From the IMG/VR virus record IMGVR_UViG_3300017785_001504, positions 1 through 52,377 of that record: a stretch of DNA of 52,377 nt; one strand, 5' to 3'. The position numbers were made by a program, and so were the translations under genes. The stretch is from a virus (Duplodnaviria > Caudoviricetes). The notes below the pieces were generated by a model, which saw only the letters and a program-made list of their open reading frames with translations, ran no database searches and was not told where the DNA came from. Positions 2,983-41,462 of the stretch are shown here, piece by piece (the first letter of the stretch is position 1; every line of letters begins with the position of its first letter).

Positions 2983-3333
2983 ATGTTTAAATTCAAAGGG
3001 ATTGCCTACAAGGTGGGCAACGTGGAGACTATCTCCGACAAATTTCGTAAGCGTGAGTTCATTGTAACCGATGGTGCTGACCAGTATCCGCAGTACATTC
3101 CATTCACATTTGTTAACGACAAGTGTGACTTATTGGAGAGCATTGCTGAAGGCCAAGAGGTCGAAGTATCGTTCAGTTTAAAGGGTCGTGAGTGGACTAG
3201 TCCACAGGGTCAGGTGAAGTACTTTTCAACAATTGAGGGCTTTGCTGTTACGACTACATCTAACCCGGCATTCGCTCCTAACGTAGCGCCTAGCGCTCCA
3301 GGATCAGGGCACACTGACGATTTGCCATTTTAG
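2983..3333 (+). CDS. DUF3127-family OB-fold SSB-like protein
   Basis: FRKREF, QYPQYI, GREW motifs and acidic DDLPF tail. Confidence 0.88.
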   Translation: MFKFKGIAYKVGNVETISDKFRKREFIVTDGADQYPQYIPFTFVNDKCDLLESIAEGQEVEVSFSLKGREWTSPQGQVKYFSTIEGFAVTTTSNPAFAPNVAPSAPGSGHTDDLPF

Positions 3334-12269: not shown

Positions 12270-12485
12270 ATGCAGAATGTCAACTACGTCAACTCAACTA
12301 TGCTCGAAATCAACGAGCTAACCGACAGCATCTATGAGCACCTCATGGATGAAGACTATGACGCATTGATTCCCACAATTCAAAATCTAATCGTAGTCCT
12401 CAGGGATCTGCACAAAACTCATTACGATGAAACAATACATCGACAGAATCCTGGAGCTCCTAGCATCGGGAATGACAAAGGCTGA
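12270..12485 (+). CDS. Hypothetical protein
   Basis: 71 aa; TACATTAG promoter-like box at 12254-12261. Confidence 0.65.
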   Translation: MQNVNYVNSTMLEINELTDSIYEHLMDEDYDALIPTIQNLIVVLRDLHKTHYDETIHRQNPGAPSIGNDKG

Positions 12486-13584
12486 TATTGCCAGACAAAT
12501 CATCTCAGAGAACAATCTTGATACTAGAGAGGAGACAATGAGAATATATGTCACTCGTGCTATTAAAAGACACAATAAAGGCGTTGATGAGGCATGTGAT
12601 GATCTACAGGTAGCCCCATCAAACGTCCCATATCTTTGGCTTAAGACCAAGCAGGCGTCCCTATTTATCAAGAACCCGGCCTATCGCGTTGATGAGATTG
12701 ACTACGAAACAATTGTATCGAAGTTCTTGCAGGACAAGCCCGTGATTGTGAAGAAAGAATGGAAGCCAGGAAAGACGGTTGATCGTTTGGTTTGGACTGA
12801 CGTTCACGTAGGCATGGATGCTAGCCGTAAGGGATTGGCTTTGTATGCTGAGGATTGGAATGAGAAGATATTGATGCAGCGCGTTCATGAGATGGCTGCG
12901 TTTGTTATAGCCAATAAATCGTCAGATACGCTCATTTTAGACGATCTAGGAGACTTTATGGATGGTTGGGATGGTGAGACAACTCGAAAGGGGCATAAGC
13001 TGCCACAGAACATGACAAACGAAGAAGCATTTGAGTCGGGTCTAAAGGCAAAAGTCACACTAATTGACATATTGGCTCCGGAGTACACTCAGATAGTATG
13101 TAACAACATCTGCGAAGACAACCACTCAGGTGCCTTCGGTTACATTGTCAACTCAGCATTTAAGCATGTCATTGATCGTAAGCACAGCAACGTCACCGTG
13201 CACAACCACAAGAAGTTTATAAACCACTACATAATCGGAGACCATGGGTTTATCATTAGCCACGGCAAAGACTCTCGCAACCTTAAGTTCGGCTTCAAGG
13301 TCCAACTTGATCCAAGAAGTGTTGAGAAAATATCTCAGTACATTAGACACTCGCAAGAAATAAGGGCCTGTAAGTATGTTGAGTTTAGCAAGGGTGACTC
13401 TCACCAAATGCTATTTGACTACTGCTCTTCTGATGAGTTTGATTACTTTAACTTCCCGGCATTCTCGCCTAGCTCAGAGTGGGTTCAGACCAACTTTAAG
13501 AAAGGCCGATCAGGATTTGTGTTCTTCCAGATCGACCTCACATGCAATCGTAAGGTTGTTATGCCTTACTTCTTTAATATTTGA
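12427..13584 (+). CDS. Calcineurin-like metallophosphoesterase with N-terminal HTH
   Basis: TDVHVG, LGDFMDG, DNH, SHG, GDSH motifs. Confidence 0.85.
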   Translation: MKQYIDRILELLASGMTKADIARQIISENNLDTREETMRIYVTRAIKRHNKGVDEACDDLQVAPSNVPYLWLKTKQASLFIKNPAYRVDEIDYETIVSKFLQDKPVIVKKEWKPGKTVDRLVWTDVHVGMDASRKGLALYAEDWNEKILMQRVHEMAAFVIANKSSDTLILDDLGDFMDGWDGETTRKGHKLPQNMTNEEAFESGLKAKVTLIDILAPEYTQIVCNNICEDNHSGAFGYIVNSAFKHVIDRKHSNVTVHNHKKFINHYIIGDHGFIISHGKDSRNLKFGFKVQLDPRSVEKISQYIRHSQEIRACKYVEFSKGDSHQMLFDYCSSDEFDYFNFPAFSPSSEWVQTNFKKGRSGFVFFQIDLTCNRKVVMPYFFNI

Positions 13585-16500
13585 TCGGCTGTTTTATTGG
13601 CCTTAATTGCTAACAACATTTCTTCTGTTGGTCTTGGAATGTATTCTAAGATTTTAGCATACTCTATTTTTTGATCCTCCGTTAATGCAGTCTTATTGTT
13701 GCTCTCTAAGGTTGTTTTAATGAAATCGATTTCATCATCTATAGTTGACATCTTTTTCTTCTTCTCAGCTAACTTCTCTAGCACTGGATCAAGCTTCCCA
13801 TATTTCTCTTTAATGTCAGCTGACATGTTTTTTACTCTTTCAGAAGTTCTATTACTTTTCTTAAGTAGTGCAAATGACTTGTTGGCTATCTGATCAGCTT
13901 CACGAATTGGAGCCACTAAGCCTATTGATTTTATGATAGCAACACTTTTCATTTTTTCCATTCCTTCATCGTCAAGGTATGCCGTTCTTTCATTGTTGTC
14001 AATGAATTCACCTGTCTCCATAGCCTTGTAAATATCATAAGCCTCCGACAATTTTTCACCTTGAATTCCAAGGGTACCAAAATTCGTTTCATCAGATATG
14101 TAGAACTGAATGGAGTTTTCTTCAATATATTTCTCTCTTTTCTTTCTTTCTTCTTCAGCAGTAAGTGGGTCTTGGTCCTTGAGCTTTCTAATGTTATTTT
14201 CTTGATCAATATATTCATCAACTTCTGACTTTTCTGGTGCACCTATACCTGCATATGCCATTAGTTGATTAGATTTCTCAAGAATAAAATTATCTGCTAA
14301 TGATAGTGGTGAGAATACATCTAATATAGCCTTACTCCATGATCCAGATAGCATATTCTTTTTAAGTGTTTCAACAAGCTCTTCCTTCTCTTCATCATCA
14401 TATCCTAGTATACTCATTGCTGACCATAGTATCAATTCAGCCATTTTAAATCTAATGACATTATATACAGCAATCTCAGCTGAAATAGATGCCAAAGATC
14501 TCGCCGTATCCAAGTCAAAATTACCGGTAAACATTTTTGTCAGGTCTCCCCACATCCTTGTCTTTTGGTTCATACCAAAAGATGAGAATGGGAATAGCAT
14601 ACTTTTGATAAGCTTGGCATATGGATTTTTAGATCTGTATAAATCACCTCTAATTCTAGAATCAGTCATATCCATCGATCTATCAACCATTGACTGTGCG
14701 TAAGCTGCTGCATCTACATTTGGCTCGGCATTAAAGTCGATTGGACCTAACTTGTTTTTTGCTGCATACTTTCTATAGTAGGCCATCCAAGCTATTCGTC
14801 GTGCGGCAGCATCTGGATTAGATACCAATATTTGAAAGGCTTTGGCATTAAACTTAGTAAACTTATCTAAACCTATCTCTGCTATGTTTTTACCTAGTGT
14901 TGCCTTATCTATTGACTTATCAAAATTTGACAATGATATCAAGATGTCATTCTCACCAACGTTTGCAATTGACTGCCCTGATCTATTCATGAAGTCAAAA
15001 GCTGCTTTGCTATAGTCAGTTGGTCTTATGTATTCACCTGCATTTACAATGGTGTTTGACATACCTGATGCAAACTGGTTAGCCCACTGGCCAATACCAG
15101 ATAGTGCTCTTACGGATCCAAATGTACTAAGCACATCAAAGAACTTATCTGCACCTCTTAGTAGGTTTTTGTCGACAAGATTTTTTCCCTTTATGTCGTT
15201 AATGTAATCAGATAGTGCGCTCTTAATGATGTCAAAATCTTTCTCAGATCCAATAATTTCCTCATTCTCTCTTGAGTTGTAGAATGAGTTTAATTGTCTA
15301 ATAGCTTTAGCTGTATAAGAGTCAGTAAGCGCAAGTCTATATGATCTGAACATATTATTATCAAAGTTTAAGTCAACGTACTTGCCGTTTGATTTTAAGT
15401 CTTTTGGTCTTGTTATTGGCATCAATACACCGGCCTCATTTCTATTGAAGTAGTTGTTTGAATACTGTCCAAGACCAAGAAGATCGCCACCATTCAAAGC
15501 ATCACCATTTTCAGCTGCTCCTTGCTTAATATTAACGTATGTCTTTGGGGTATAGTTAATATCTTGGTTCAACATGATATTGTAAACACCCATTGCAGTG
15601 TCACTCAATTGATCGTACTTCTCAGCAAACATATCAACAGCGAAATTTACTGCATCTATATTTGATTTCTCAGCCTTATCAAGTACACTTTCAAGAGTAA
15701 CGTTAGCATTATATAGACCAAGTTTTTTGAATACTTTGTCATATAGCTTACCCATCTTTACTTTAGTATCATCCTGACTTTTTAAAAGCATATCCTTAGA
15801 ATCCATAAGTATATTGACCAATCGATCAAACTCTGCATCTTGGTCTATGTTTGGATTTGTTCTAATTAAGTCAGCGATAATACCTCTCTCGTATATGTTT
15901 TCGTTTGACTTAAATCCTTTTATGCCATGGAATTTTTTAATGTACTCTGATTGCTTGAATGCAGCCTCAAAGTCAGCTTTATTGGCACCAACAATAATTT
16001 TATTAATTCCACTTGCTTTTTGATATGCGTTAGCTTTCTCTACACTTCTAAACTTACGCTCAAGTATTCTACTAAATCCTGCAAATCCCCCTAATCTTAT
16101 TTGACCTAACTTTTTAAACATTGCTATGCTCATTGGGCTAGATTTGTCTCTAAACTTTTTAGCGTTCATCATTCCCTCATAGGCACCCATTAGAGACTCA
16201 ATTCCTGATGTAACACCATTGGCAAAGTATGTGTCAAGTGCATCTAGAACTTTAATTGAAGAAGCAATACCAAACTCCTCAGCGTCAATGTTGATTGCAT
16301 CAATAATAACCTGTGGTGTATCCTCGTCTATAAGTTGGCTGTATGCTGCCAACTGTAGGTCAATCTGATCAAGTATGTCAGCTGAATTATCTACGTCAGG
16401 CTTCAACGCTTGGAGCTCTGTTAGCATTGTTTCAGCAGGCAAGTTTGTAGAAGGTTTGCCGGTAATATTCTCGTATCTAGCCTGTAGGTTTTTAAATAGT

Positions 16501-19500
16501 CGCTGCGTTTGACGTTGTTGCTCAGCGTCAATGTATTCAGCAATTACCTGTAGATCAGGTTCTTGTTTTAGTGTCAACTTGCCGCCTCTAGTAGAGCTAG
16601 ACTTAACACCTTCCATAATCATCTGTGCTACAGCAATATGGTCTACAATATTCTCAACGTACTCAGCATCTAGTGATGTAAACATCTTGGCTACTACAGC
16701 GAATGGATTTGGCTTACCTTTTAGTTTACTGGCAATTGCCTTAGACATTCTCTTGGCCTTCTGAACGTTGTCTATGTACTCAGCATTTGCAAGCGCTCTA
16801 GATACATAATCAATGAACTCAGACACCTTTTGCTTATTATCGAAATTTAGGCCCTTCAGCTTCTTCATAATGAAGTCAAACTGCTTGACTGATATGTTGC
16901 CCTTACTTTTTAAAGAAGTGACGGTAGCGGAGATGTCAGCTAGTATTTTCTTATACTCTCTCTTTTGTTCTCTCTGCGCTCTAGCCTCAAGTTTGATCTG
17001 ATCAAGTAGAGCCTTGTACTCATCTTTCACAATCACCTGTGTCGGCTTCCCTCCTAAAATTTTTGGTGCCTTTTGTTGTTTTCTTGTAGGAGTTGATATT
17101 TCAATATCCGACTCAGATAATAGATTTTCTTGTACAGAAGATTTAAGTTCTTCTAATGAAGATATCTTATCAGTAATCTTGTTTATTAAAGATTTTCTAA
17201 ATTCAAGGTCACTATCTGAACTAGTAATTTTTCTTGATTGTTTTTCAAGATCTTTTTGTAGTAAGTCAAGCCTATTTTCTATCGACTTAAGAAGAGATTC
17301 TCTTAACTCTGTTATTTTTTTGGTCTTACCTCCAAGAAAATTAGGGACATTTCTATTCTTTATATCCTGTAGGTACTCAAAAGGGATTCCTAGTTTATTG
17401 AATACATCTGTAAAATCCTCTCCATAAATCTTTATTTTAGATTCTCTACTAGGAGTTGCTTTTTGGAATTTAATCTTTCCACCCTTAGCTGACTTAGTTT
17501 CAAACATAGGGTCAGATGGAGACACTTTCTTGACGTTTTTAGCTAATACTAATGCGCCTACTTGAATAACCTCATCAGCTGAAACCACTGGCATGCCATC
17601 TGATTTATCGTAAAACCAACTGTATCTAAATGGATTCATACCAACTTGCGTCCAAGCAGGGTCGTTCATTAATTCTTCCGCTCTAGCATGTACCAACTTA
17701 GGGTCTTCATTAACCCAATCACCAAACATTCTAGCAATGGTTGTTTTTTGAGAACCTGTAGCAATTCTCATTGCCGTACCTGGGAAAGTTTTAAAGTCTA
17801 CATTTTTTAGAACAGCAGTCTGACCATAAGCAATAGATTTTCCTTCCTTAACTCCATCATGTATTGAAACAACCCAAGTATCAAACCACTCGTATGCAGG
17901 AATATCTAACCTACATGCTACTCTTGCGCCATCTACTAGATTCTTGGTTAGCCCAATAATACCTGTTGCTACTTGATTATCTTTTAATGAATTAACTATT
18001 TCTTTAAGGCTTGGTAATCTAGGAACATTTTTAAATAACTTAATAGGTTGATTTTTAGCAACAGTGTCAAGGTATTCTTCTTGAGTTATTTCTTCATTAA
18101 AATAATCCTTTGCAGCTTGTTCAACTATTGGATTTCTCTTTTGCTTTTGATTTACTTTGTTTTTCTTTTTCCAAGCCTCTCTTTGTGCTTCAGTTTCACC
18201 AAGCGCTTCTAAAGCCGCTTCAGATCCAGGCATGGCATCTTTATCAGTTGTTAGCTGTTTCTTACGCCCGGTTGTTTTGGCTGTTTCTCGTTCTTTACGA
18301 ATTTCAGAAAATGGCTTATAGCCTTTGTCCCTCCAGGTTTCGATTCTTTCTTTAAGTCCTTTTGCATCTAGTTGTTTTTTAAAATATTCTTCATAACTAT
18401 CAGGTCTTTCGCCTGTTCTTAATATGTTTGCAGCCCATAAAGCAGCTTGAACTTCTCTAGGGGCTAATCCTAATTCAGATGCTACTACTCTTACAAACTC
18501 TTTTCCTTTCTCAAATTCAGCTTGATTCTTAGGATTGACTTGTTTTTTATTAGGATTCTTCCACATTATTATAGACCAAACATGTGAGTCTACAGCAATG
18601 GCTTCTTTATCTCCGGTAAGAGCCTTAAAGAAGTTAGACATCTTATCTGACTTTATTCCTTGGCCTTCTAAAAATTGAGTTACGTATCCATAATACTCAG
18701 CAACACCTTTAGGCATTTCGCCTTGGTAAATTCTTTCGGCATTACTGATTGCCAAGCTAACCGTTGTAACACTATTAGCCGCCATGGATGCCAATGGAAG
18801 TAAAGATAAAACATCTTCAGCGTACTCTCCAAATATACCATCTACATATGTGGATAAGCCATCATACCATGTGGTCCAATCTATAACCTCTCCAACTATT
18901 TCTTTGGCCTCTTGAATGGTAAGCGGCATGTTATCTCTTTGAAATAACTTTTGCAGCTTTTCAGATGCTTGATCTGTTCTTTGAACTAATTGTTTCTTAC
19001 GAGCGCTTATCTCCCCAGATGCATAAGAAAGCTTAGCCGTTCTACCATACTGAGCTAGGGCATACTTTTCACTTTTGTATCTACCTTGTTCTACTTTTTT
19101 GTAATACTCTTCATAACTAAATGTATCTCCAGATGACTTTGTAAGTTCTTTTATTGCCTCAGAAAGATTGTATGCTCCATCTAAGATAAATACCTCAATC
19201 TCTGCTGAACTACCATCTTGATTAACAGCTGCAATTTCATATGGATATGACTTATGGTAGAATGGGTCTTTCTTGTTACTTTTATTTGCAACCAAGCCCC
19301 CTTTTGTTCTATAAACAATGACAATGTCATGTACGTTTTTAGACTTTTGCGTCTCTGGTTCAGTAAATTTTTCAGCCATTGCTGACATAGACCCGGCAGA
19401 TGGAAATTTATCACTAACTACCTTTCTGTCGCCTAGAACACCCGATACGAATTCTTTTCTTTCTTCAAATGTTAAAGACTTAATTCTTTGACCATTGTCA

Positions 19501-22500
19501 TTAAGTATGTCATTTCCATTTCTGTCCTTAATAAACCCATCCTGTTGGAATAAAGTATACTCAAGCTCATCAAAAATTTGCTCAATATTGTTTGATCTCT
19601 TTAATGCGTTCTTGATTATATTCTTTTTACCTGCTATCTTCTTTTTATCAAAAGCCTTCTCAATATACATCATCAACTCAGCCTTAGTTACGCCAGAGTT
19701 TTTCTTTAATGCATCCATTTTCATTAACTCCAATGTAGCCAATAACATATCATTGTTACTCATTTGGCTTTTGGGCTTCATGATTATAGGAGTACCATAT
19801 ATATAACCATCGGCATCTCTTTTAGAATTTCTAGCAATTCCACTTGCCTTTGTCATCGTATTAGATGCCCACCACTTTCCTGTTATTATTGGATAGAATA
19901 TACCACCAAAGAAATTAAATAGTTTATTACCTTCATCGTCAGCTATAAATGCACCAGTCATCCTATCTGACTCAAATACATTAGATTTCTTGCCATCAAA
20001 TCTAGACAAAGGAACATTTTCTTCTAATTTGGTATTTGGGTTTACAGGGTATCTTTCAAATGTACCTGTAGCTAAAATACTTTTCTTTCTAGTTACATTA
20101 GTTGCATTAAGTACACCACTAATACCCATAGAATTAATATTCTCACCTGTAGTCAATCCAAAAGTAATGGCGTTAATAAGGTCAGCAGCTTCTTTAGTCT
20201 TAGCAGACGCCTTGAATATAATACCTAGGCCAATCTTTTTCATCAATCGGTTGATCAATGCTTTGAACTGAGTAAGCTTGCTTACAGTAAGCTCTTCTCT
20301 GTTGTCAGCAAGGATACCACCAAGTTGAGCCATAAACTCCTCAGCCTTGAGCTCGTCACCATCATATGACTCAATGAAAGCATCAAGATCGGCTAGTCTA
20401 GCTTTATCTGTAATTAATGGACGAAGTCCTTTTGCTAGGTCGATAAATAGATTTTCAGAAATACCTAACGCTGCAAAAGCATGGTGGACAGCCTCGTGAA
20501 GAAGTGTAACCATATCAGCCTTTGTCATGTCAATGTGAATCTCACCGTCTATATAAGACCCGGCACTATTTTCCTTGGTAATTGACTGCTTGCTCTCACC
20601 CGTTCTGTCGGCTAACGCGCTAGCATATTGGTCTGTATTCTCATGAAGATATATCTTAACACCTGGTAGTGCCTTCATAATGTTAAGAGCGGCCCTTACT
20701 ATAGGATTACGCTTGAACTTAACAGACATTAATTTTGCGTTCTTCTCGGTTATTAGATTGGCTTCAGCATCTACAGTTTCCTGAACCTCACCATCTATCA
20801 TTGAGAATTCTTCCGGAAGCAAACCAATCTTTTGATCGGCAAATTTTGCCTCATCATAGATCTGATTAACAAGAGCAGCAGCTTCATCAAGTTTGCCTTG
20901 CTCACGTAATTTTACAGCTTCCTGTCTTATAAGTTCAACTTCTTCGTTAACACCGGAGAAGTTTACATATGAATTCTGACCTCTAGTCTCAGTTGTCATA
21001 GCTCTACGCGCCAAAGGAGAGTACATTCTTGCATGCACATTCCATGCATTCTCTTCTCCCTTAGGTCCAAATGAGTTACCTAGTTCAGCATGACCAAAGA
21101 AGTCATGAACAGCTCTAAATAAATCATTAACCAACATAGGTTGGCCATTGACATCAGTAAATTCAGTTGTTGCGAGTAATGGATTTTCAGCTCGTTGTTT
21201 TGGTGTGATTGGTGTATCTCCAAAACCAGCTTCAGTAGAGAATATTCTAATGCGCTTATTGTTGCGCAAATCCTCGATCATTTCTTCAGAGTTAGCATAA
21301 GGCTCCTCATTGTTGATCTCTACTACATATCCGGCATCTAGGAACGCTTGGTATTGCTCAATAGTTTCTTTTGCCATGGCTTCATAAGCCCTTCTGACCT
21401 CTGGGTCATTAGGACTATCTTCCATAGCTTCATAAGCAGCGGCTATCCTTTTTGCTCTTTCGACATCGAATTCTGTCGTACCTTCAAACGTTGGTCTTTG
21501 AGATCCGAAAACTCTTTGAAAGTATCGATTAGCAATTTCTGCAACTGCCTTGAGCGGCTCGTTGAAGAGTCTATTTCCAGCTTTTGGTTTTCCTTTTTCA
21601 TCTTTTGCTAAATTAGTTTGTTTTTGCGTATCCTGCAAATTTTCTTTTATATACTGTCTTTCGATCTCCTGATAGACCGTCTCAAACTCAGCCTGCTCAA
21701 CAACACCAAGTTTGTTCTCACGATCACGGATAGCAAAGTCAAGGGCTTGTTCACCGGTAAGTTTAACCGTGTTACCAAGTCTATCACTTACTACAACAGC
21801 TTGAAGTGCGCCATTATCGTCGAACTCAAAGCCATCCTCGTTGATCTCCATGGTCGGGGTGTCTATCACAATCACCTCTCCGTTTGGCATAGCCGCCTCT
21901 ACGCGACCGTTGTTGTCTGATAGGGTTACTTGTTGTCCATTGACTTCGGCTTCGACGCCATTGAAGTATTTTTCGGCTCTGATTTTTTGGACCGCTTCAG
22001 AAGTTCTTCTAGTAGGGCTAGCTGCCCCTGCTTTGGTAGTTGCGACAGTTTCAGTCTTTGTTCTAAATTCATAGTTATCTAATTTATCTGCAATGTTTAA
22101 TAATTTCTCAGACATAGCTGCCTTTGTCTCAGGGCTGTATTGATCTGACTTGTCTAGTTGTTCTACCTCATTAAAGATAGCCTCAATAGCAGTGTCAATG
22201 TCATTATCGTTGATAAACTCAGCGTTTGACATCTTATCCATGATTGGGTTTATAGTGGCTCCAAGACGAGCCTCTGCACCCATATCTGCTATGTATTGGT
22301 CTACTTCTTCTTTAGCTTTTTGGGTAGTTTCTTTAAGTCCTGTTTCGGGTTCTCCTTTCGCCATTTCTCTGCCACCTGTGGCTCCTGGCTGTACAGATAC
22401 TTCACTTGTTGCTTGCTCTTGAAAGGCATTTTCTCCAATTTTAGTTAGTTCTTCATTGATAGCCTTGATGCGTGCTTCTATAGGTGCAACAAGGTTAGGG

Positions 22501-25268
22501 TCTTTCCCTCCTTTTTCTCTTGTTAATTGAGCTCTTTCTGTAATCAAAGAAAGAGATTTATTCATGTCTGATGTAGATAGACCATTTGGCATCATTTCAA
22601 ACGCAGACTCAATCTCGTTCAAGTTATCTAGATTCTGCTGTGCTTTTGCTTTAGTGATTTTACCATCCAACATCTGAGTCTTCATAGATGCCACGTATAG
22701 CTTCTTGAAGTTGCTATCTACAACAATATCTTTTAAGAACTTTACGTCATCTTCATTATACAAAGAAATATTACCCTTTGTTATAGCTTGAAATAATGTA
22801 CCTACTGATCCTAGGGTAACACCGCCAATCAGCTCAGCAACACCATCCTCAAATGTTTTAGATCCTAATTCTTTTAACCCATCGGCTGTGTCAAAGTACT
22901 CACCTTGAGTTAGATTTTTCTTTTGCTCTTCAGTTAAACCGCTTTGTTGTATGTAGTTATAAACATTCTTCAAGCCTTGGTCTAATACCAATGCTTGCGT
23001 AAATCCAGTCTCAAATTCAGCAACACCTGCCTGTGTTACACGAATTAATCCCTTAGCTAAAAGACTTTCAACCTCTTTGGCGGCAACTCTTTCAAGCGCT
23101 TCTTTAGTTGCATTAGCGCCTACTTTCTTAGCAGACTTAATAGCAACATCCATCATTACCTTACCCAAGAATGAGTCACCCTTAACTAAGTTCTGCAAAC
23201 CTACACTCTCAAGCACACCCATACCTGCTGCGTATGGTATCGCAATAATCGCGCGATCACCAGCAGACGTATATTGAAAGTCAGGATCGCTAAGCATTTC
23301 CTCTTCAATACCACTATAAGCCTGTGCAGCAAGTCCTATAAAACCAGCAGCCTTACCAGCTACACCAGTTGCCATTGCAGGTAGTGATTCAAGAACACCC
23401 CCTATGGCTTGTGTAATAAAACCTCTATCGCCTGACTTCATGTACTCAAGGGTAGTTCCCTCAGATCCAAGTACATCGATAATATTTTCTTTTGCTTGAT
23501 TCTTTGCTTTTAATACAGCTTGATTATCAAGTAGATTTTCAATCTGATCTTTAGTAAGATTCTTTCCGTTATATTTTATTGACTTGTAGTAAGCCTTTTC
23601 CTCTGGAGATAAATAATCGTATCTTTTTTCATTAGCCTCTAATCCAGCAAATGGCTCAACAAATGTCATTGATACACCGCTTAAGACCTTGTTAACTACA
23701 AATCCACCAAAACTACCTTCCTTTTCTTTAGCGGCAACATACTTACCAGCTACTAGATTTAACTTATTCTGTGATGCTTGAATTTCTTTTTTTTGCATCA
23801 CCAAATTTTGGGCTCTTGTTTCTAATGATTCAGCTTTATTATCTAGTATCTTTTTCTGAGCATCGAATTGTTCTTGAGTCATTTTGCCGCTTTGAGCTAA
23901 CTCATTAAATCTATTTACCTCATCATCGTATACTTTTCTATCTTGTAGTATGTTTTTTTGTGACTGTTCAAGATCATTAAGCTTCATATTATACGTCTTG
24001 ATATTATCTTGAATAATCTCATCAGTATAGTATGTGTTAATTTTAGCCTTCGCCTCCTTTATCTTGGCAGGATCTTTAGTAGCTAAAGCATACTTATAGT
24101 CATCATATATTTGATCTTGCTTTGCTTTGCTTTGTTGATCGCCACCTATTTTCTTTTTCTTATAGTCTTGATATGCTGAGCTTTTGTAGAATGACTGAAC
24201 ATCCTTTGAAGAAATATTTCCACCAACAATTTTTTTCTGAATGATTTCTTTCTGCTCTTCAAATGGCAATTTCTTAAACTGTGACTGAAAATCGCTAGAT
24301 AATAAGTTCTTACCTATGATAGCAGCAGACTCTTCTTCATAGCTACTTTGATCAGTTCCAAATGCCAATGTACTGCCTCCAGTTTGGGGCTTTATTTTTA
24401 TATCTCCTTTATTAAGACTATTTAAAGCTTTGTCAAAGTTTTCGCTATATGACTTAGTGGCATTTGTCTCTAAGAATGCACGTAAATCACGTGCTTGCTC
24501 AGGATTCTTTTCATCAAATTCAACTAACAGCTCCTTGCTGCCGTCCTTTGTCTTTACTCTGATTTGGTCAATAGCAAATAATCCCTCTTCAGAGAATTCA
24601 AAGCCATACTTGCCGTATTTTTCAGTCAAGTATTTGATAGCATTCTCCTCTGTTTTACCTACAAAGTCTGAGTTAATGTCATCAAATTTAGCAGGCTTCA
24701 TAGTAGTTGTGGTTACAACTCTAGTGCTAACGCTTTTACCGTATCGATTATTTAACGCATTGATTGAGCCCTCATTTTGAATGGTATGCCACTTGCTACC
24801 AGGAGTCATTCGCTGCCATTGTCCGTCCTTTATACGGTATTGGTTATCAGCTTTCTCGTCATCGTAATTATTAAATAACTCATATTCTTGAGATAAAGAC
24901 GCATCCTTTTTAAACTGCTTATTAAGATTACCAATTCTATTTGGGTCAGTAATTTGAGCGTACTGAGCTTCCTTCTGGCCATATACTTTTACGCCAGATT
25001 CTTCATACCACTTGCCATTCTTAAACTTATAAGGCTTCTCTTCTTTACCGGGATATCCAGTAAAGATCTCAACGTTTGATGACGCCGATGAACCAGTCCC
25101 CGAAGCTGATCCCCCACCTGTTGGGTCTTTTTTTTTTAAATCAACTTGCGGAGCATACTCAGGATATTTTTCTACCATTTTAGATGCTAGAGTGTAATTA
25201 TCTACATCCTTATACTCTGGATACTTAGCTTTTATTTTTTCAGCAAATTCGTTATAGTCTAAAGGCAT
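13566..25268 (-). CDS. Giant (~3900 aa) modular virion/ejection protein
   Basis: Start placed at MPLDYNEF after an A-rich leader; last of three ejection-type genes; HEAVH zincin motif at 20484-20498; several discrete modules; long helical C-terminus. Confidence 0.85.
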   Translation of the reverse strand: MPLDYNEFAEKIKAKYPEYKDVDNYTLASKMVEKYPEYAPQVDLKKKDPTGGGSASGTGSSASSNVEIFTGYPGKEEKPYKFKNGKWYEESGVKVYGQKEAQYAQITDPNRIGNLNKQFKKDASLSQEYELFNNYDDEKADNQYRIKDGQWQRMTPGSKWHTIQNEGSINALNNRYGKSVSTRVVTTTTMKPAKFDDINSDFVGKTEENAIKYLTEKYGKYGFEFSEEGLFAIDQIRVKTKDGSKELLVEFDEKNPEQARDLRAFLETNATKSYSENFDKALNSLNKGDIKIKPQTGGSTLAFGTDQSSYEEESAAIIGKNLLSSDFQSQFKKLPFEEQKEIIQKKIVGGNISSKDVQSFYKSSAYQDYKKKKIGGDQQSKAKQDQIYDDYKYALATKDPAKIKEAKAKINTYYTDEIIQDNIKTYNMKLNDLEQSQKNILQDRKVYDDEVNRFNELAQSGKMTQEQFDAQKKILDNKAESLETRAQNLVMQKKEIQASQNKLNLVAGKYVAAKEKEGSFGGFVVNKVLSGVSMTFVEPFAGLEANEKRYDYLSPEEKAYYKSIKYNGKNLTKDQIENLLDNQAVLKAKNQAKENIIDVLGSEGTTLEYMKSGDRGFITQAIGGVLESLPAMATGVAGKAAGFIGLAAQAYSGIEEEMLSDPDFQYTSAGDRAIIAIPYAAGMGVLESVGLQNLVKGDSFLGKVMMDVAIKSAKKVGANATKEALERVAAKEVESLLAKGLIRVTQAGVAEFETGFTQALVLDQGLKNVYNYIQQSGLTEEQKKNLTQGEYFDTADGLKELGSKTFEDGVAELIGGVTLGSVGTLFQAITKGNISLYNEDDVKFLKDIVVDSNFKKLYVASMKTQMLDGKITKAKAQQNLDNLNEIESAFEMMPNGLSTSDMNKSLSLITERAQLTREKGGKDPNLVAPIEARIKAINEELTKIGENAFQEQATSEVSVQPGATGGREMAKGEPETGLKETTQKAKEEVDQYIADMGAEARLGATINPIMDKMSNAEFINDNDIDTAIEAIFNEVEQLDKSDQYSPETKAAMSEKLLNIADKLDNYEFRTKTETVATTKAGAASPTRRTSEAVQKIRAEKYFNGVEAEVNGQQVTLSDNNGRVEAAMPNGEVIVIDTPTMEINEDGFEFDDNGALQAVVVSDRLGNTVKLTGEQALDFAIRDRENKLGVVEQAEFETVYQEIERQYIKENLQDTQKQTNLAKDEKGKPKAGNRLFNEPLKAVAEIANRYFQRVFGSQRPTFEGTTEFDVERAKRIAAAYEAMEDSPNDPEVRRAYEAMAKETIEQYQAFLDAGYVVEINNEEPYANSEEMIEDLRNNKRIRIFSTEAGFGDTPITPKQRAENPLLATTEFTDVNGQPMLVNDLFRAVHDFFGHAELGNSFGPKGEENAWNVHARMYSPLARRAMTTETRGQNSYVNFSGVNEEVELIRQEAVKLREQGKLDEAAALVNQIYDEAKFADQKIGLLPEEFSMIDGEVQETVDAEANLITEKNAKLMSVKFKRNPIVRAALNIMKALPGVKIYLHENTDQYASALADRTGESKQSITKENSAGSYIDGEIHIDMTKADMVTLLHEAVHHAFAALGISENLFIDLAKGLRPLITDKARLADLDAFIESYDGDELKAEEFMAQLGGILADNREELTVSKLTQFKALINRLMKKIGLGIIFKASAKTKEAADLINAITFGLTTGENINSMGISGVLNATNVTRKKSILATGTFERYPVNPNTKLEENVPLSRFDGKKSNVFESDRMTGAFIADDEGNKLFNFFGGIFYPIITGKWWASNTMTKASGIARNSKRDADGYIYGTPIIMKPKSQMSNNDMLLATLELMKMDALKKNSGVTKAELMMYIEKAFDKKKIAGKKNIIKNALKRSNNIEQIFDELEYTLFQQDGFIKDRNGNDILNDNGQRIKSLTFEERKEFVSGVLGDRKVVSDKFPSAGSMSAMAEKFTEPETQKSKNVHDIVIVYRTKGGLVANKSNKKDPFYHKSYPYEIAAVNQDGSSAEIEVFILDGAYNLSEAIKELTKSSGDTFSYEEYYKKVEQGRYKSEKYALAQYGRTAKLSYASGEISARKKQLVQRTDQASEKLQKLFQRDNMPLTIQEAKEIVGEVIDWTTWYDGLSTYVDGIFGEYAEDVLSLLPLASMAANSVTTVSLAISNAERIYQGEMPKGVAEYYGYVTQFLEGQGIKSDKMSNFFKALTGDKEAIAVDSHVWSIIMWKNPNKKQVNPKNQAEFEKGKEFVRVVASELGLAPREVQAALWAANILRTGERPDSYEEYFKKQLDAKGLKERIETWRDKGYKPFSEIRKERETAKTTGRKKQLTTDKDAMPGSEAALEALGETEAQREAWKKKNKVNQKQKRNPIVEQAAKDYFNEEITQEEYLDTVAKNQPIKLFKNVPRLPSLKEIVNSLKDNQVATGIIGLTKNLVDGARVACRLDIPAYEWFDTWVVSIHDGVKEGKSIAYGQTAVLKNVDFKTFPGTAMRIATGSQKTTIARMFGDWVNEDPKLVHARAEELMNDPAWTQVGMNPFRYSWFYDKSDGMPVVSADEVIQVGALVLAKNVKKVSPSDPMFETKSAKGGKIKFQKATPSRESKIKIYGEDFTDVFNKLGIPFEYLQDIKNRNVPNFLGGKTKKITELRESLLKSIENRLDLLQKDLEKQSRKITSSDSDLEFRKSLINKITDKISSLEELKSSVQENLLSESDIEISTPTRKQQKAPKILGGKPTQVIVKDEYKALLDQIKLEARAQREQKREYKKILADISATVTSLKSKGNISVKQFDFIMKKLKGLNFDNKQKVSEFIDYVSRALANAEYIDNVQKAKRMSKAIASKLKGKPNPFAVVAKMFTSLDAEYVENIVDHIAVAQMIMEGVKSSSTRGGKLTLKQEPDLQVIAEYIDAEQQRQTQRLFKNLQARYENITGKPSTNLPAETMLTELQALKPDVDNSADILDQIDLQLAAYSQLIDEDTPQVIIDAINIDAEEFGIASSIKVLDALDTYFANGVTSGIESLMGAYEGMMNAKKFRDKSSPMSIAMFKKLGQIRLGGFAGFSRILERKFRSVEKANAYQKASGINKIIVGANKADFEAAFKQSEYIKKFHGIKGFKSNENIYERGIIADLIRTNPNIDQDAEFDRLVNILMDSKDMLLKSQDDTKVKMGKLYDKVFKKLGLYNANVTLESVLDKAEKSNIDAVNFAVDMFAEKYDQLSDTAMGVYNIMLNQDINYTPKTYVNIKQGAAENGDALNGGDLLGLGQYSNNYFNRNEAGVLMPITRPKDLKSNGKYVDLNFDNNMFRSYRLALTDSYTAKAIRQLNSFYNSRENEEIIGSEKDFDIIKSALSDYINDIKGKNLVDKNLLRGADKFFDVLSTFGSVRALSGIGQWANQFASGMSNTIVNAGEYIRPTDYSKAAFDFMNRSGQSIANVGENDILISLSNFDKSIDKATLGKNIAEIGLDKFTKFNAKAFQILVSNPDAAARRIAWMAYYRKYAAKNKLGPIDFNAEPNVDAAAYAQSMVDRSMDMTDSRIRGDLYRSKNPYAKLIKSMLFPFSSFGMNQKTRMWGDLTKMFTGNFDLDTARSLASISAEIAVYNVIRFKMAELILWSAMSILGYDDEEKEELVETLKKNMLSGSWSKAILDVFSPLSLADNFILEKSNQLMAYAGIGAPEKSEVDEYIDQENNIRKLKDQDPLTAEEERKKREKYIEENSIQFYISDETNFGTLGIQGEKLSEAYDIYKAMETGEFIDNNERTAYLDDEGMEKMKSVAIIKSIGLVAPIREADQIANKSFALLKKSNRTSERVKNMSADIKEKYGKLDPVLEKLAEKKKKMSTIDDEIDFIKTTLESNNKTALTEDQKIEYAKILEYIPRPTEEMLLAIKANKTADQILKK
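21608..21639 (-). promoter_or_regulatory. Internal promoter-like element in the giant gene
   Basis: TTTG-N20-TAATTTAG, 6 nt before an out-of-frame ATG at 21601. Confidence 0.45.
22301..22429 (-). CDS. Nested out-of-frame small basic protein (MPFKSK-type), 42 aa
   Basis: MPFKSKQQVKYLYSQEPQVAEKWRKENPKQDLKKLPKKLKKK*; A-rich leader. Confidence 0.65.
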   Translation of the reverse strand: MPFKSKQQVKYLYSQEPQVAEKWRKENPKQDLKKLPKKLKKK

Positions 25269-25284
25269 GTTTATTTTTTTATTA

Positions 25285-26736
25285 TTATAGACCCAATCCA
25301 AGAGGATCATTATTCTTAGGAGTTGCAGGTTTAGGTTTTTTAGTGGTAGTGCTTGCAGTTCTACCGCCTGCTCTAGCTTGATTAAGTGCGGCATCCCAAT
25401 CTCCTTGTTGAAGATTTGTAACCCCTAGATATGGCGTTAATGAATTAACTGTGGCATTTGGAATAGTTTCTACAAGTTCTTTTGTAAATCCAGTACCTCT
25501 TGCCTTTTTAACAGTCTTGTAAACCTGTAGCTTGCCACCTTCAATCCATTTAAAGTCATATGTAGTAGACATCTCGCTTAATTTTTCGCTACTAGTGAAG
25601 TTTTTTACAACTTTGTCAGCTAAAGGAATAAGTTTATTTTCAGGCTCTTTGTCGCCCTTTAATGGTCTTACGTCTTCTTCAATTGACTTGAATTCAATCT
25701 GTAGCTCAATAGCATTCTTGATAGCTTCTTTGGCGCGATCTCTTTGATATGCAGTAATCATTGGTTGATATACACCAGATGCATCTTTTTGCATTGGTAT
25801 GAGTTTTTTCTCAGCCTCTTTAATAAACTCATTTAACTCTCCCTGATCCATGTCAGCCATGTTCTTGAAAGCACGTATTTCATTTTGTTTATCAACCATC
25901 TCCATTAATAGTTGATCCTTATCTTGAGCTGTGTAATAAGTATTAAAGCCTTCGTCCATGTTATCCATCAAAATGGATAGTGTTGATCTATTATTGCTAG
26001 TCAAAGCACCTGTTAAGTCTGCTATTTTTTCAGCATAACCAGGTGCCTGTCTAAGGTCAGTTACTACAGTTATTCCGTTTTCTGTAGTGTATTTTTGCCA
26101 ATACTTAGTAACCTCAGCGACAGACTCATCTACTTTTACTTTGTCAAATATCATGTTATTGATATCTGCAATAGTCTTAGAGCTCTCAATAGTATCTGGA
26201 ATTACTTGCCCGGTTTTTGCATCTAATCGGCCTGTACTGACTCCACCAGTGCTTGGGTCTATAAAAACTTGTAAGTTCTTTAAGTCACCCATTCTAGCAA
26301 AATATTCACCTGCTTGAACAGATGCTTTTGATATTTCACCACTTTGGAGTTTTTTTTGAATCTCTGCGTTCTTTGTATCAAAGCCCTTTACACTAGTGGC
26401 TAGTGTACCCCAATTTTCCATGAGGTTGTTCATTCTTTGCTTATACTCTTTTGGGTCAAGCTCACCTCTCTTAAGTGCGTCATTCCAAGCCTTAATAGTA
26501 GCAACACCATTCTGAGATGCACCAAGCATTTGCTGTTGGAATGTCTGACTAGTAAAATTATCAGCCTCTTGAATGGTCCTAATATTGTCAGTCTTGAGTT
26601 GATCAAGCTCTAACTTAAGGTCTTCACGGGTAGTTTCAATATCTCTTACAGTGGTATAAAGACCGCCTATAGCCTTAGACCAATCTACCGACTCGGTAGG
26701 GATATAGCCAAATATGTTTTGATTGCTAGCTGCCAT
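25285..26736 (-). CDS. Putative internal virion/ejection protein
   Basis: Helical 483-aa protein between the small pilot-like gene and the giant gene. Confidence 0.65.
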   Translation of the reverse strand: MAASNQNIFGYIPTESVDWSKAIGGLYTTVRDIETTREDLKLELDQLKTDNIRTIQEADNFTSQTFQQQMLGASQNGVATIKAWNDALKRGELDPKEYKQRMNNLMENWGTLATSVKGFDTKNAEIQKKLQSGEISKASVQAGEYFARMGDLKNLQVFIDPSTGGVSTGRLDAKTGQVIPDTIESSKTIADINNMIFDKVKVDESVAEVTKYWQKYTTENGITVVTDLRQAPGYAEKIADLTGALTSNNRSTLSILMDNMDEGFNTYYTAQDKDQLLMEMVDKQNEIRAFKNMADMDQGELNEFIKEAEKKLIPMQKDASGVYQPMITAYQRDRAKEAIKNAIELQIEFKSIEEDVRPLKGDKEPENKLIPLADKVVKNFTSSEKLSEMSTTYDFKWIEGGKLQVYKTVKKARGTGFTKELVETIPNATVNSLTPYLGVTNLQQGDWDAALNQARAGGRTASTTTKKPKPATPKNNDPLGLGL

Positions 26737-40352: not shown

Positions 40353-41462
40353 CTAGTTTTTAGGTTTTTGTTTTATAACTAATCTGTTACCGAAACCAGA
40401 CTCTACAGCTCTTACTTGGAACGTTCCGTCAGTTTTGTTAGTCACCTGAGTGGCTTGACGAGTCATATTAATGTTTTTAGACTCTTTAGAAACTGTCTCA
40501 ACAGCTTCTGTCATACCCTTCTCATAGAAGAACTTGGCAAACTTTTCGGGATTCGAAGCAATCGCTATTGCTCGATGGAACACCTCAGCATCCTTTAGGT
40601 AGCCCTCTTCGTTTAAGAACTTATTTACAAAGTTGCTTAATGAAGACTGCTCGTTAAGAAGTGTCTTTGCATCTGCCGGCTTGAACGTTACTGCCTTATC
40701 TTCGTCAATATTAAATTTGAAACCTTCAAACTTATCAGAAAATAATTCATTCGTCTTATCGGCGAAATACCTAGACCGCTTTTGTTGCTCCTCTTGCTCG
40801 CTAGTCGCGGTTTGTTTATATTGCTTATAAGATTCGTAAGCTTCTTTTTCTTCTTGCGGAACAAAGGTATCCCTTGACTCAAGCGGAGCCTTGTACTGTT
40901 CTTTAAGCTTATTAAAATACTCACGAGCCTTATTGAGCTCTTTTTTTCTCTCTAGCTTTACCTTCTTAATGTGCTTGTCATCATCAAAGTCCTCATCATA
41001 TGAAAACTTGGTCTCTAACTCAAACTTAACCTCATCAGCATCAAGCCCTGGGTTCTGATCTTTAGCGTATTGGTAAAGTAGAGAATCTTCGTCCATGGTA
41101 CTGTAATCAACGTTCAACTTCATGAAGTCTTCAATACCACGTCCTGTCTCTCTCTTGTATTTCAGAAACGCAGAGACATCTTCAGGTAGTTCTTCAGCTT
41201 GTTCGCGCTCTTGAACTAAATCATCCAAAGATGTAATCTCTTTGTTCCATCTCTTACCAAGATATGAAAGAACTTTATTATCATCCAAATCAACCTCTAC
41301 TGGTTGAATTGGGTCTTCTACAGGCTGCCCTTCGGTTAAGTCAATCTTTACTGTGTCTTGATCGCCACTATGATCTTCTAAACCCTCAAGAAGCGCTGCT
41401 TCTTTTTCGGCTACAGACTTCTCCTCGAAATCTACAGCTCTTACTTTAAATTCACCTTCCAT
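40353..41462 (-). CDS. Putative scaffold protein
   Basis: Acidic N-terminus and coiled coil, between portal and capsid; -7 box TAACTTTG at 41479-41486. Confidence 0.7.
   Translation of the reverse strand: MEGEFKVRAVDFEEKSVAEKEAALLEGLEDHSGDQDTVKIDLTEGQPVEDPIQPVEVDLDDNKVLSYLGKRWNKEITSLDDLVQEREQAEELPEDVSAFLKYKRETGRGIEDFMKLNVDYSTMDEDSLLYQYAKDQNPGLDADEVKFELETKFSYDEDFDDDKHIKKVKLERKKELNKAREYFNKLKEQYKAPLESRDTFVPQEEKEAYESYKQYKQTATSEQEEQQKRSRYFADKTNELFSDKFEGFKFNIDEDKAVTFKPADAKTLLNEQSSLSNFVNKFLNEEGYLKDAEVFHRAIAIASNPEKFAKFFYEKGMTEAVETVSKESKNINMTRQATQVTNKTDGTFQVRAVESGFGNRLVIKQKPKN

Follow-up and report, generated by a model that had tools for sequence, protein, structure and literature searches.

The window analysed here, a stretch of 52,377 nucleotides of DNA from a virus of the Caudoviricetes, very probably contains a genuine protein-coding gene at positions 22301-22429 of the minus strand, embedded in the +1 frame of a giant virion gene. 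Sequence comparisons show the nested gene's product to belong to a family of small phage proteins that is old and occurs very widely. The nested ORF stands out from chance by how well it is conserved, by its codon-position pattern and by the stand-alone genes to which it is homologous. Its length is not out of the ordinary, as 7 of the 103 ATG ORFs in the giant gene's +1 frame have at least 42 codons and the same frame holds 10 stop-free runs of at least 47 codons.

The nested reading frame and its protein family

The ORF was found exactly where a preliminary description of this DNA had placed a small gene (Table 1). It lies wholly inside the ORF 13566-25394, on the same strand and in another frame, which is the +1 frame of the giant gene because (25394-22429) mod 3 = 1, and it overlaps host residues of about 989-1032. 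The predicted peptide, MPFKSKQQVKYLYSQEPQVAEKWRKENPKQDLKKLPKKLKKK, is strongly basic, with a pI of about 10.2 and 14 K/R against 4 D/E; it is polar and basic throughout, with neither a cysteine nor a hydrophobic stretch. An AlphaFold2 model of the peptide (mean pLDDT 72.3) places short helices at residues 6-15 and 17-26 and leaves the Lys-rich tail behind them disordered. Foldseek searches with this model returned no match in the PDB at E <= 10, and in BFVD only weak, uncharacterised matches of its own family (best E 0.97).

Table 1. Coordinates of the nested gene and of the features discussed with it
Feature	Position	Strand	Description
Giant host gene, putative virion protein	13566..25394	(-)	3,942-codon ORF
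Nested small gene	22301..22429	(-)	ATG at 22429, stop ending at 22301; 42 codons plus stop
Host-frame reading of the overlap ('linker')	22298..22430	(-)	Acidic, pI 4.6; predicted coil between helices
A-rich leader before the nested ATG, putative internal translation start region	22430..22459	(-)	No Shine-Dalgarno motif; weakly structured RNA
Scaffold-position gene	40353..41462	(-)	369 codons; flanked by the portal gene and a capsid-like gene

In its own frame, the giant gene reads the overlap as NAFQEQATSEVSVQPGATGGREMAKGEPETGLKETTQKAKEEVD, as the preliminary description had quoted it. In a model of this segment of the giant protein, built on a shallow alignment of 7 rows (mean pLDDT 56.7), residues 115-165, or about 994-1044 of the giant protein, have pLDDT values of 27-34 and are flanked by helices on either side. 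The giant gene product matches Pfam DUF7178 and Phage_L5_gp82 as well as PHROGs 3170, 586 and 3842, all three annotated as of unknown function, and is a distant homologue of a gene annotated 'structural protein' in Flavobacterium elemo phages.

The preliminary description had suggested a widespread stand-alone phage family with an MPFKS pattern, and such a family exists, with 3,106 clusters and members in five inspected phage records. Its members share the N-terminus MPFKS.xQ..[YF][LM][YF]..xP..A..[WFY], followed by ..LP and a Lys/Arg-rich tail. The window peptide has MPFKS, Gln8, Pro17, Ala20, an aromatic residue at 23, Leu-Pro at 35-36 and the Lys/Arg-rich tail, and it carries every invariant column of the 41-row family alignment. 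The 41-member profile matches it at E 1.2e-25, the window peptide being itself one row of that profile; independently of it, each of 13 metagenome candidates 42-54 residues long matched, the best at E 1.4e-13. In all, the profile retrieves representative clusters (50% identity) numbering 3,106 at E <= 1e-3 and 195 at E <= 1e-10. Among the best 150 of the 3,106 matches, 84 have no more than 80 residues, 127 start with M-[PA]-[FYW], and in most the module starts at residue 1.

Most family members are stand-alone proteins of 43-80 residues. Stand-alone ORFs of 36-72 residues occur in Synechococcus phage S-CBS2, Prochlorococcus phage P-RSP2, phage C75C1, Streptomyces phage Vorvolakos and phage 023Pt_psg01, and 7 of 17 MAG loci carry a stand-alone copy. 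The neighbours of such copies are inconsistent, with a holin in Streptomyces phages and small genes of no known function elsewhere. Family members of 100-850 residues have the module at residue 1 followed by unrelated C-terminal parts without a shared theme, including an AAA/P-loop domain, HExxH-like motifs (identified by eye) and Gly-rich segments; a single weak PHROG match among these longer proteins is to 'minor head protein and DNA pilot'.

The only library family to match the small proteins is PHROG 1375, annotated as of unknown function. Its match to the window peptide is weak (E 0.058); relatives match better, among them the stand-alone copy at locus L081 (E 1.5e-5), the nested copies at L078 (1.1e-4) and L087 (1.3e-3), and longer family members (E 1e-4). 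The PHROG 1375 library entry makes no mention that members can be nested. Pfam searches with the window peptide, with 7 relatives and hosts, and with 149 representatives returned no family for the module, and no NCBIfam model matches the peptide. A protein atlas offered unnamed viral clusters of 42-44 residues and one named lead, to Pfam DUF3008 (PF11450), with a score of 0.85 and the label on 15% of the cluster's members. DUF3008 is, like the window peptide, a short, basic, phage-associated family; membership was rejected on the HMM test, in which PF11450 gave no match to the window at E <= 10 and matched none of the 149 representatives at E <= 0.01. A distant-mode nucleotide search of GenBank phages with the surrounding 1.2 kb found no match. 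In the portions of the literature reached by full-text search, no paper was found on the nested gene, the peptide motif or DUF3008; the one passage retrieved, in PMC12919940, is an unrelated coincidence of letters.

Start codon, leader and annotation

Of 364 confirmed viral loci, 80 were kept for counts, and all 80 retain the ATG. The small gene is nested in 78 of these, at +1 in every case, with 62 copies in a long ORF and 16 in an ORF of 378-428 codons, and it stands alone in the remaining 2; as the loci are related, these counts are not independent events. Among the closest relatives of the adjacent giant-gene segment, 8 of 10 have the nested ORF. Conservation of the ATG and open frame in related giant genes, which had been proposed as a check on the embedded gene, is thus borne out by the 62 loci in long ORFs.

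It had also been suggested that annotation pipelines miss the embedded gene, and in the inspected elemo phage and ctfjg026 records no separate CDS is annotated beneath the match. The search matched 68 Flavobacterium elemo phage records, and among the matches listed only the large 'structural protein' is named there. One elemo phage also has a truncated second start, MPFKSK, with a stop after 10 codons, 132 codons upstream.

One could argue that the module is reached by a +1 frameshift near residue 989, which would give a truncated protein of roughly 1,030 residues with a basic tail and no independent small protein. Phages use programmed frameshifts in structural genes, and a metagenome protein of 1,075 residues (P0016) joins a giant-like N-terminal part in frame to the module at its C-terminus (residues 1034-1074); hence a fused form exists somewhere, or the P0016 record has an indel. 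We nevertheless regard a frameshift as improbable. The ATG is invariant in the viral loci and the window, and the family module is most often found at the very start of a protein. The nested frame closes 0-24 codons upstream of the ATG, usually fewer than 10, and at locus L028 a stop stands immediately before it. The 30 bases upstream of the ATG vary among loci and lack a conserved slippery motif, and the same cassette works in unrelated host genes. A programmed frameshift site was accordingly rejected as a candidate, given the variable upstream bases and the closed frame.

Independent initiation at the nested ATG on late mRNA would instead account for translation of the small gene, as far as can be judged from the sequence. 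Initiation would use an unstructured, A-rich context free of a Shine-Dalgarno motif, as at this phage's other genes; in the window, a Shine-Dalgarno-like tetramer is present at 3 of 30 gene starts. The A-rich leader of the preliminary description is real, the 30 bases upstream of the nested ATG being 53% A compared with a mean of 36% before the giant gene's 177 out-of-frame ATGs. Predicted folding from -30 to +30 gives -2.8 kcal/mol at the nested ATG versus a mean of -8.3 for the same 177 ATGs (rank 10 of 177). Across 71 distinct loci the mean is -2.86 against -8.28 +/- 3.6 for 5,124 control out-of-frame ATGs, with 65 of the 71 falling among the least-structured 20% of controls and 53 among the least-structured 10%, in a comparison where the loci are related and the downstream half of the folding window is conserved coding sequence.

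Contigs 90-99% like parts of 21729-22782 were found in three RNA-recorded runs (X16, X17 and X18, from two studies) and likewise in a run that is probably DNA (X15). We give the RNA-library contigs no weight for transcription because contigs cannot reveal starts, strand or level. In several contigs from divergent relatives the similarity stops at 22429-22438, near the ATG, which merely restates the island of conservation.

Selection on the overlap and copy number

Comparison of the two frames demonstrates that purifying selection acts on the nested one. Among 57 distinct sequences in which the copy lies in the giant gene, entropy at nested codon positions 1, 2 and 3 is 0.442, 0.237 and 0.882, and nested position 2 is host position 3, so that the host's third position is the least variable. 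Averaged over 51 such loci, identity is 80.5% in the nested frame; read in the host frame, this same DNA gives 51.6%, and the 500 host residues that follow give 16.7%. Among 604 inferred changes, 346 leave the nested peptide unaltered but replace a host residue (57% versus 15% expected, a 3.7-fold enrichment) and 59 are the reverse (9.8% versus 22.8% expected, 0.43-fold), in a Fitch reconstruction that treats sites independently and whose noise can be measured by impossible 'nested stop' changes, 9 on the first tree and 5 on the second. None of the 604 changes creates a host stop, and the second tree gives the same substitution pattern. Replacements in the nested frame are conservative (Y/F, K/R, L/V/I). 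Copies in the scaffold-position gene behave alike, with entropies of 0.465, 0.296 and 0.666 and identities of 72.5% nested versus 56.9% host; between the two classes, identity is 56% nested versus 34.7% host.

On these comparisons, the giant gene's reading of the overlap, an acidic linker predicted to be disordered, evolves almost freely, apart from staying open. Since the nested frame is much better conserved than the host reading, it is the small gene that determines how this stretch of the giant protein reads. The idea that the linker sequence is dictated by an embedded gene therefore holds up on both the least variable host third position and the excess of nested-silent, host-replacing changes.

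It might be objected that a motif of the giant protein, [ND]A[VFI]Q[EK]Q[ST]T.EV.VQ..., is what selection maintains, the +1 ORF remaining open and conserved merely along with its DNA. ORFs of this length are common in the giant gene's +1 frame, and the host-frame reading is itself alike across loci and recurs in scaffold-position hosts. Yet the entropies are the opposite of what host-frame selection would leave, host-silent changes are depleted where host-replacing, nested-silent ones are enriched, and homologues of the nested peptide stand alone in unrelated genome contexts. The hosts of loci L123 and L124, moreover, share no similarity outside the overlap stretch, as expected if the nested gene imposes the 'motif' on otherwise dissimilar ORFs. 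We find this objection very improbable.

Within one phage lineage, the single copy is found in the giant gene of some phages and in the scaffold-position gene of others, at +1 in every case. All of the 11 virus records counted gave exactly one profile match, CheckV rating 4 of the 11 as at least 98% complete, and the nested ORF is the sole family match in the window's own record. The window's scaffold-position gene is 36% identical to the host ORF of L078 over 284 residues (E 6e-56); its homologues in related phages contain the nested small gene in an N-terminal acidic region, and the window copy has none. Conversely, genome G003 has a homologous giant ORF of 3,139 codons without a nested gene and its single copy in the scaffold-position gene. 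The portals of the two lineages, with the copy in one gene or the other, are 50% identical over their full length. That a genome has just one copy, in one or the other of two host genes, argues strongly that the protein is important.

These observations also weigh on the suggestion that the ORF is a decaying relic, a once stand-alone gene swallowed by fusion, no longer expressed, and recognisable since the event was recent. Two distant giant-gene relatives, together with G003, have no copy in the giant gene, and the truncated start in the elemo phage could be read in the same way. However, the ATG and open frame persist across hosts whose flanking giant-protein sequence is down to the 16.7% identity given above, the substitution pattern is that of ongoing purifying selection, the copy is the only one in every record counted, and giant genes without it are paired with a scaffold-position gene that carries it. 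A relic is thus highly unlikely. It is scarcely credible that the island serves as a signal in DNA or RNA, for instance a recombination site or a regulatory RNA, and does not code: it does sit at a mosaic junction of the giant gene, with relatives either 42% identical on the upstream side and 97% on the downstream side, or 91% and 19%, respectively, but the three-base periodicity of variability and the conservative replacements point to protein-level selection, the RNA around the ATG is unusually unstructured, and stand-alone protein homologues exist.

Possible origin and comparison with known systems

Under the reading of an embedded coding gene, the small gene would be the older partner, and the large ORFs may have come to read across it by fusion or extension of neighbouring genes. 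Alternatively, a dual-coding cassette may have been transferred into a tolerant linker. It is tempting to speculate, though we do so tentatively, that this is a 'linker-dwelling' gene, that is, an ancient small gene that persists by occupying, at +1, the disordered acidic linkers that large head and virion genes encode, moves as a cassette between unrelated hosts (several times so far), and doubles as a homology patch for module exchange. The guest's lysine codons would be read as glutamate-rich, stop-free host sequence. Besides the giant virion gene and the scaffold-position gene, at least two further large ORFs host the cassette, and at least six context changes are needed on a tree of about 40 residues, which is weak. 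A role as a homology patch for giant-gene modules is suggested because the cassette is far better conserved than its surroundings; such a role could be a secondary consequence.

If the ORF is the coding gene that the comparisons indicate, annotation has overlooked a conserved gene throughout a group of aquatic phages, cultured ones included, and the missed gene is the only copy of a family with thousands of clusters and no Pfam model. The usual overprinting story would be reversed, with the embedded gene old and widespread and the large gene's reading the newcomer. The overlap would also be a clean case, from nature, in which one gene fixes the sequence of a linker in the protein of another, and [ND]AVQ[EK]QST.EV.V, a seeming motif of giant phage proteins, ought not to be counted among the features of those proteins. 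One copy with two alternative host genes provides a ready comparative system, and since cultured hosts exist, translation, packaging and function are directly testable.

Wholly embedded phage genes are not unprecedented. In the spanin genes of lambda, Rz1 is embedded in the +1 frame of Rz, and depending on the phage the Rz/Rz1 pair is embedded, overlapping or separate. The gene described here is likewise a small gene wholly inside a larger same-strand gene at +1, nested in some phages and stand-alone in others. Its host is either a giant putative virion protein or a scaffold-position protein, whereas Rz is a spanin, and nothing found here points to host and guest acting together. Rz1, as a lipoprotein of the outer membrane, carries a signal peptide and a lipobox cysteine; an embedded Rz1-like o-spanin was rejected as a candidate, the window peptide having neither a cysteine nor a hydrophobic segment.

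A second precedent, along with other microvirus overlaps, is gene E of phiX174, which lies inside the scaffold gene D, encodes a membrane protein and is regarded as a young gene born in D. Both cases involve a small +1 gene in a morphogenesis gene, and in relatives of the window the host is the scaffold-position gene. In contrast to E, the embedded gene here would be the widespread, older partner, the overprinted reading would be the host's linker, and the product is predicted to be soluble and basic. A lysis protein like E, with an N-terminal transmembrane helix, was considered and rejected, as the sequence is polar and basic and the model has two short helices of amphipathic length and a Lys tail.

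As for function, we raise, with considerable doubt, the idea that the product is a basic late protein, a helical hairpin with a poly-lysine tail, which may attach to nucleic acid or to acidic proteins inside the head while the head is being assembled, perhaps as a packaged internal protein. The internal proteins of T4 are small and basic, are produced late together with head genes, and carry an N-terminal capsid-targeting sequence. The likeness is a functional analogy only, in that the small-protein family also has a conserved N-terminal module followed by variable cargo.

The nested arrangement and its conservation

The window spans an entire IMG/VR virus record, 52,377 bases long (completeness estimate 86%), and encodes a terminase large subunit, a portal, virion structural proteins and a primase/helicase. 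A small gene had been proposed to lie in the +1 frame of the giant virion gene, and the two ORFs do stand in that relation, as (25394-22429) mod 3 = 1. The overlap DNA reads NAFQEQATSEVSVQPGATGGREMAKGEPETGLKETTQKAKEEVD in the host frame (pI 4.6), and the nested product has a pI of 10.2, with 14 Lys/Arg versus 4 Asp/Glu. The openness of the nested ORF by itself has no meaning; 7 of the 103 ATG ORFs in the giant's +1 frame are of equal or greater length.

Coordinates of the features discussed
Feature	Position	Strand	Length	Remark
Giant ORF as listed	25394 to 13566	minus	3,942 codons	
Nested ORF	ATG at 22429, end 22301	minus	42 codons	reads MPFKSKQQVKYLYSQEPQVAEKWRKENPKQDLKKLPKKLKKK
Start of listed giant ORF	25268-25394	minus	42 codons	overlaps end of upstream ORF by 110 bases
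Upstream ORF	25285-26736			
Exonuclease-like ORF	12427-13584	plus	385 codons	convergent with giant gene
Convergent 3'-end overlap	13566-13584		19 bases	giant gene and exonuclease-like ORF
Mosaic region	22005-22757	minus		compared with relatives L088-L095
Scaffold-position gene	40353-41462			between 807-codon portal gene and capsid-like gene
L001 (Flavobacterium phage elemoE_10-3D)	about 2604-2640			second, truncated nested start KKMPFKSKKLMK, then stop
L123 (MAG locus)	3001-3150			divergent family member
L124 (MAG locus)	3001-3165			divergent family member

The start of the listed giant ORF bears little resemblance to protein, and the Met at 25268, immediately beyond the stop of the upstream ORF, may be the true start, which would give a giant of ~3,900 residues.

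Back-translated patterns recovered at least 364 confirmed loci from IMG/VR, 80 of which were kept for analysis. The ATG is retained in all 80; the ORF lies at +1 within a long ORF in 62 (762 to >2,658 codons within the fetched stretch), at +1 within a 378-428-codon ORF in 16, and alone in two. In addition, when the giant segment immediately upstream was compared with its 10 nearest relatives, 8 carried the ORF at +1, and the remaining two (29% identity) had a plain acidic linker in its place. Start codon and open frame are thus conserved in related giant genes, as anticipated. In GenBank, identical nesting occurs in the cultured Flavobacterium elemo phages and in Podoviridae sp. ctfjg026, whose giants, annotated as 'structural protein' and 'reticulocyte binding/rhoptry protein', are distant homologues of the window giant. 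These records list no CDS of its own for the nested match, in keeping with the suggestion in the preliminary description that pipelines miss the embedded gene.

Substitution patterns in the two frames, and the nested start

Among 57 distinct sequences nested in giant-gene homologues (first 37 nested codons), entropy was 0.442, 0.237 and 0.882 bits at nested positions 1, 2 and 3, which are host positions 2, 3 and 1, so that the most conserved codon position in the overlap is the host's wobble position. Mean pairwise identity over 51 loci was 80.5% in the nested frame, 51.6% in the host frame of the same DNA, and 16.7% over the next 500 host residues. Parsimony on a tree of the downstream host protein gave 604 inferred changes: 346 were silent in the nested frame and replacing in the host (57% observed vs 15% expected), 59 were replacing in the nested frame and silent in the host (9.8% vs 22.8%), and none (0%) created a host stop. 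A tree of the overlap itself gave 545 changes, 315 and 44 in the same two categories; impossible 'nested stop' changes, a gauge of noise, numbered 9 and 5 on the two trees, respectively. Loci nested in scaffold-position homologues behaved likewise, with entropies of 0.465, 0.296 and 0.666 and identities of 72.5% (nested) vs 56.9% (host); between the two classes, identity was 56% in the nested frame and 34.7% in the host frame. These substitution patterns indicate that the nested frame is the one under selection, and uphold the idea that the embedded gene dictates the linker sequence.

The A-rich leader noted earlier is present at nested loci. These lack a Shine-Dalgarno motif, which is found ahead of several stand-alone members in other phages. 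A Shine-Dalgarno-like tetramer precedes only 3 of 30 window gene starts, and starts that lack it are therefore the norm in the window phage. The nested ATG of the window has a folding energy (-30 to +30) of -2.8 kcal/mol, ranking 10 of 177 among out-of-frame ATGs of its giant (mean -8.3); the window's own gene starts average -5.67 kcal/mol. Across 71 distinct loci the mean was -2.86 kcal/mol, versus -8.28 +/- 3.6 for 5,124 control out-of-frame ATGs, and 65 of the 71 fell within the least-structured 20% of controls, although these loci are not fully independent because the downstream half of the folding window is conserved coding sequence. The nested ORF is probably expressed from this A-rich, Shine-Dalgarno-free, weakly structured start. 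An origin of the product by frameshifting is unlikely, given that the nested ATG is invariant, that its frame is closed 0-24 codons upstream, and that the sequence upstream of the ATG varies.

The small-protein family and its hosts

A widespread stand-alone phage family of the kind suggested does exist. In a word-indexed search with the peptide, all 13 candidates (42-54 residues) matched (E 1.4e-13 to 2.3e-2). A tblastn search started from a distant family member revealed stand-alone ORFs of 34-72 residues, each beginning with ATG, in five phages: Synechococcus phage S-CBS2, Prochlorococcus phage P-RSP2, phage C75C1, Streptomyces phage Vorvolakos (annotated gp48) and phage 023Pt_psg01 (annotated). 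Three of the five ORFs fall in unannotated gaps. A profile of the 41-row family alignment, searched against 1.84 billion representatives, matched 3,106 clusters at E <= 1e-3, of which 195 reached E <= 1e-10. Among the best 150 of these 3,106, 84 were at most 80 residues long, 32 were 81-150, 30 were 151-400 and 4 were longer, and 127 began M-[PA]-[FYW]; the Met-Pro-Phe-Lys-Ser (MPFKS) module thus forms a unit at the N-terminus, as a rule with nothing but a basic tail behind it and in some members with larger, unrelated parts. For example, in four members of 296-362 residues (P0053, P0056, P0144 and P0112) the module starts at residue 1 and is fused to unrelated parts, among them a P-loop/AAA domain (Pfam E 3e-4), a motif read by eye as HELGH and a domain weakly matching the PHROG 'minor head protein and DNA pilot'. 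Such a module may be an adaptor that can be placed on the N-terminus of different proteins. No model of Pfam or NCBIfam matched it in the peptide, relatives or representatives searched; PHROG 1375 matches relatives (E 1.5e-5 to 1.3e-3) and, weakly, the window peptide (E 0.058). DUF3008, a lead named by a protein atlas, failed the HMM test and was ruled out. In the 1,075-residue metagenome protein P0016, a giant-like N-terminal part is followed by the module in frame at 1034-1074 and then a stop, which reflects either an indel introduced in assembly or a giant gene that is naturally fused or split.

The family profile matches exactly once in each of 11 records: the window, an elemo isolate record, the complete genome of ctfjg026 and eight other IMG/VR records, four of which CheckV rates as 98-100% complete. 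The 378-428-codon hosts are homologues of the window's scaffold-position gene (36% identity over 284 residues, E 6e-56), which itself has no nested ORF, and portals of the giant-nested and scaffold-nested lineages are 50% identical end to end. The related virus G003 carries both genes. Its 3,139-codon giant ORF, collinear with that of the window (26.6% identity over window residues 638-998, 40% over 1562-2133), has no nested ORF, and its sole family copy is in the scaffold-position gene.

A survey of MAGs added 17 loci: two nested in giant-gene homologues, four in scaffold-position homologues, two at +1 in other large ORFs, seven stand-alone (mostly with Shine-Dalgarno motifs ahead), one open by GC content only, and one (L127) counted with the stand-alone group. 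The two in other large ORFs, L123 and L124, have hosts of 1,641 and 1,922 codons (PHROGs 9854 and 13543) that show no BLAST similarity to the window giant or each other beyond the stretch imposed by the nested gene, and these two seem to have been embedded independently. At locus L125 the peptide is of the elemo type but the host is the scaffold-position gene. A peptide tree of 88 tips implied at least 6 context changes (27 on average when labels were shuffled), a count we regard as suggestive because a tree of ~40-residue peptides is weak.

The giant gene is also mosaic around the nested ORF among close relatives: the giant is 42% identical upstream and 97% downstream in three relatives, 91% and 19% in another, and 44% and 14% in a further one. 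Across these, identity is 89-97% for the nested peptide and 46-72% for the overlap as read by the host; recombination that exchanges modules may use the conserved island as its patch. In elemoE_10-3D, the truncated start precedes the intact copy by 132 host codons, beneath a repeated host motif (QEDAVQKQ), and was probably left by a duplication or recombination event at the cassette's 5' end.

Product, origin and known overlapping genes

An AlphaFold2 model of the peptide (41-row alignment, mean pLDDT 72.3) has helices at 6-15 and 17-26, a break at the invariant Pro17 and a low-confidence Lys-rich tail. The host reading of the overlap is predicted as coil between helices (pLDDT 27-34, in a shallow 7-row model of mean pLDDT 56.7), which agrees with its description as a linker. 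As a tentative best guess, more doubtful than not, the product would be a small late head-assembly protein that binds nucleic acid or an acidic protein and is possibly packaged, given its charge, the position of the module ahead of variable cargo in longer relatives, and its residence in two head-related genes.

The family extends well beyond either host gene and consists mostly of stand-alone members, from which we infer that the small gene is the older partner. Three routes to overlapping genes have been named: stop loss between contiguous genes, upstream start shift and overprinting (PMC2268670). An upstream start shift would fit the scaffold-position host, in which the ORF falls at host residues 24-112; for the giants, either a fusion of adjacent genes or cassette transfer into a linker would fit. 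In each of the 80 viral loci the third frame of the strand is interrupted within 9-80 codons around the ORF, leaving just one usable alternative frame, and the guest's Lys codons read as Glu-rich sequence in the host frame; together these would explain the constant +1 offset and the acidic-linker hosts.

Taken together, the comparative evidence argues that 22301-22429 (-) is a real overlapping gene overlooked by annotation; a full-text search of the literature found no description of it. Embedded genes are familiar from lambda, where Rz1 lies within Rz, and from phiX174, where E lies within D. The window pair has the same architecture, but its product is neither a lipoprotein, as distinct from Rz1, nor a membrane protein, as distinct from E. 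It differs from both, moreover, in that the embedded gene would be the ancient partner, recurs in unrelated hosts and is held as a single copy in each genome.
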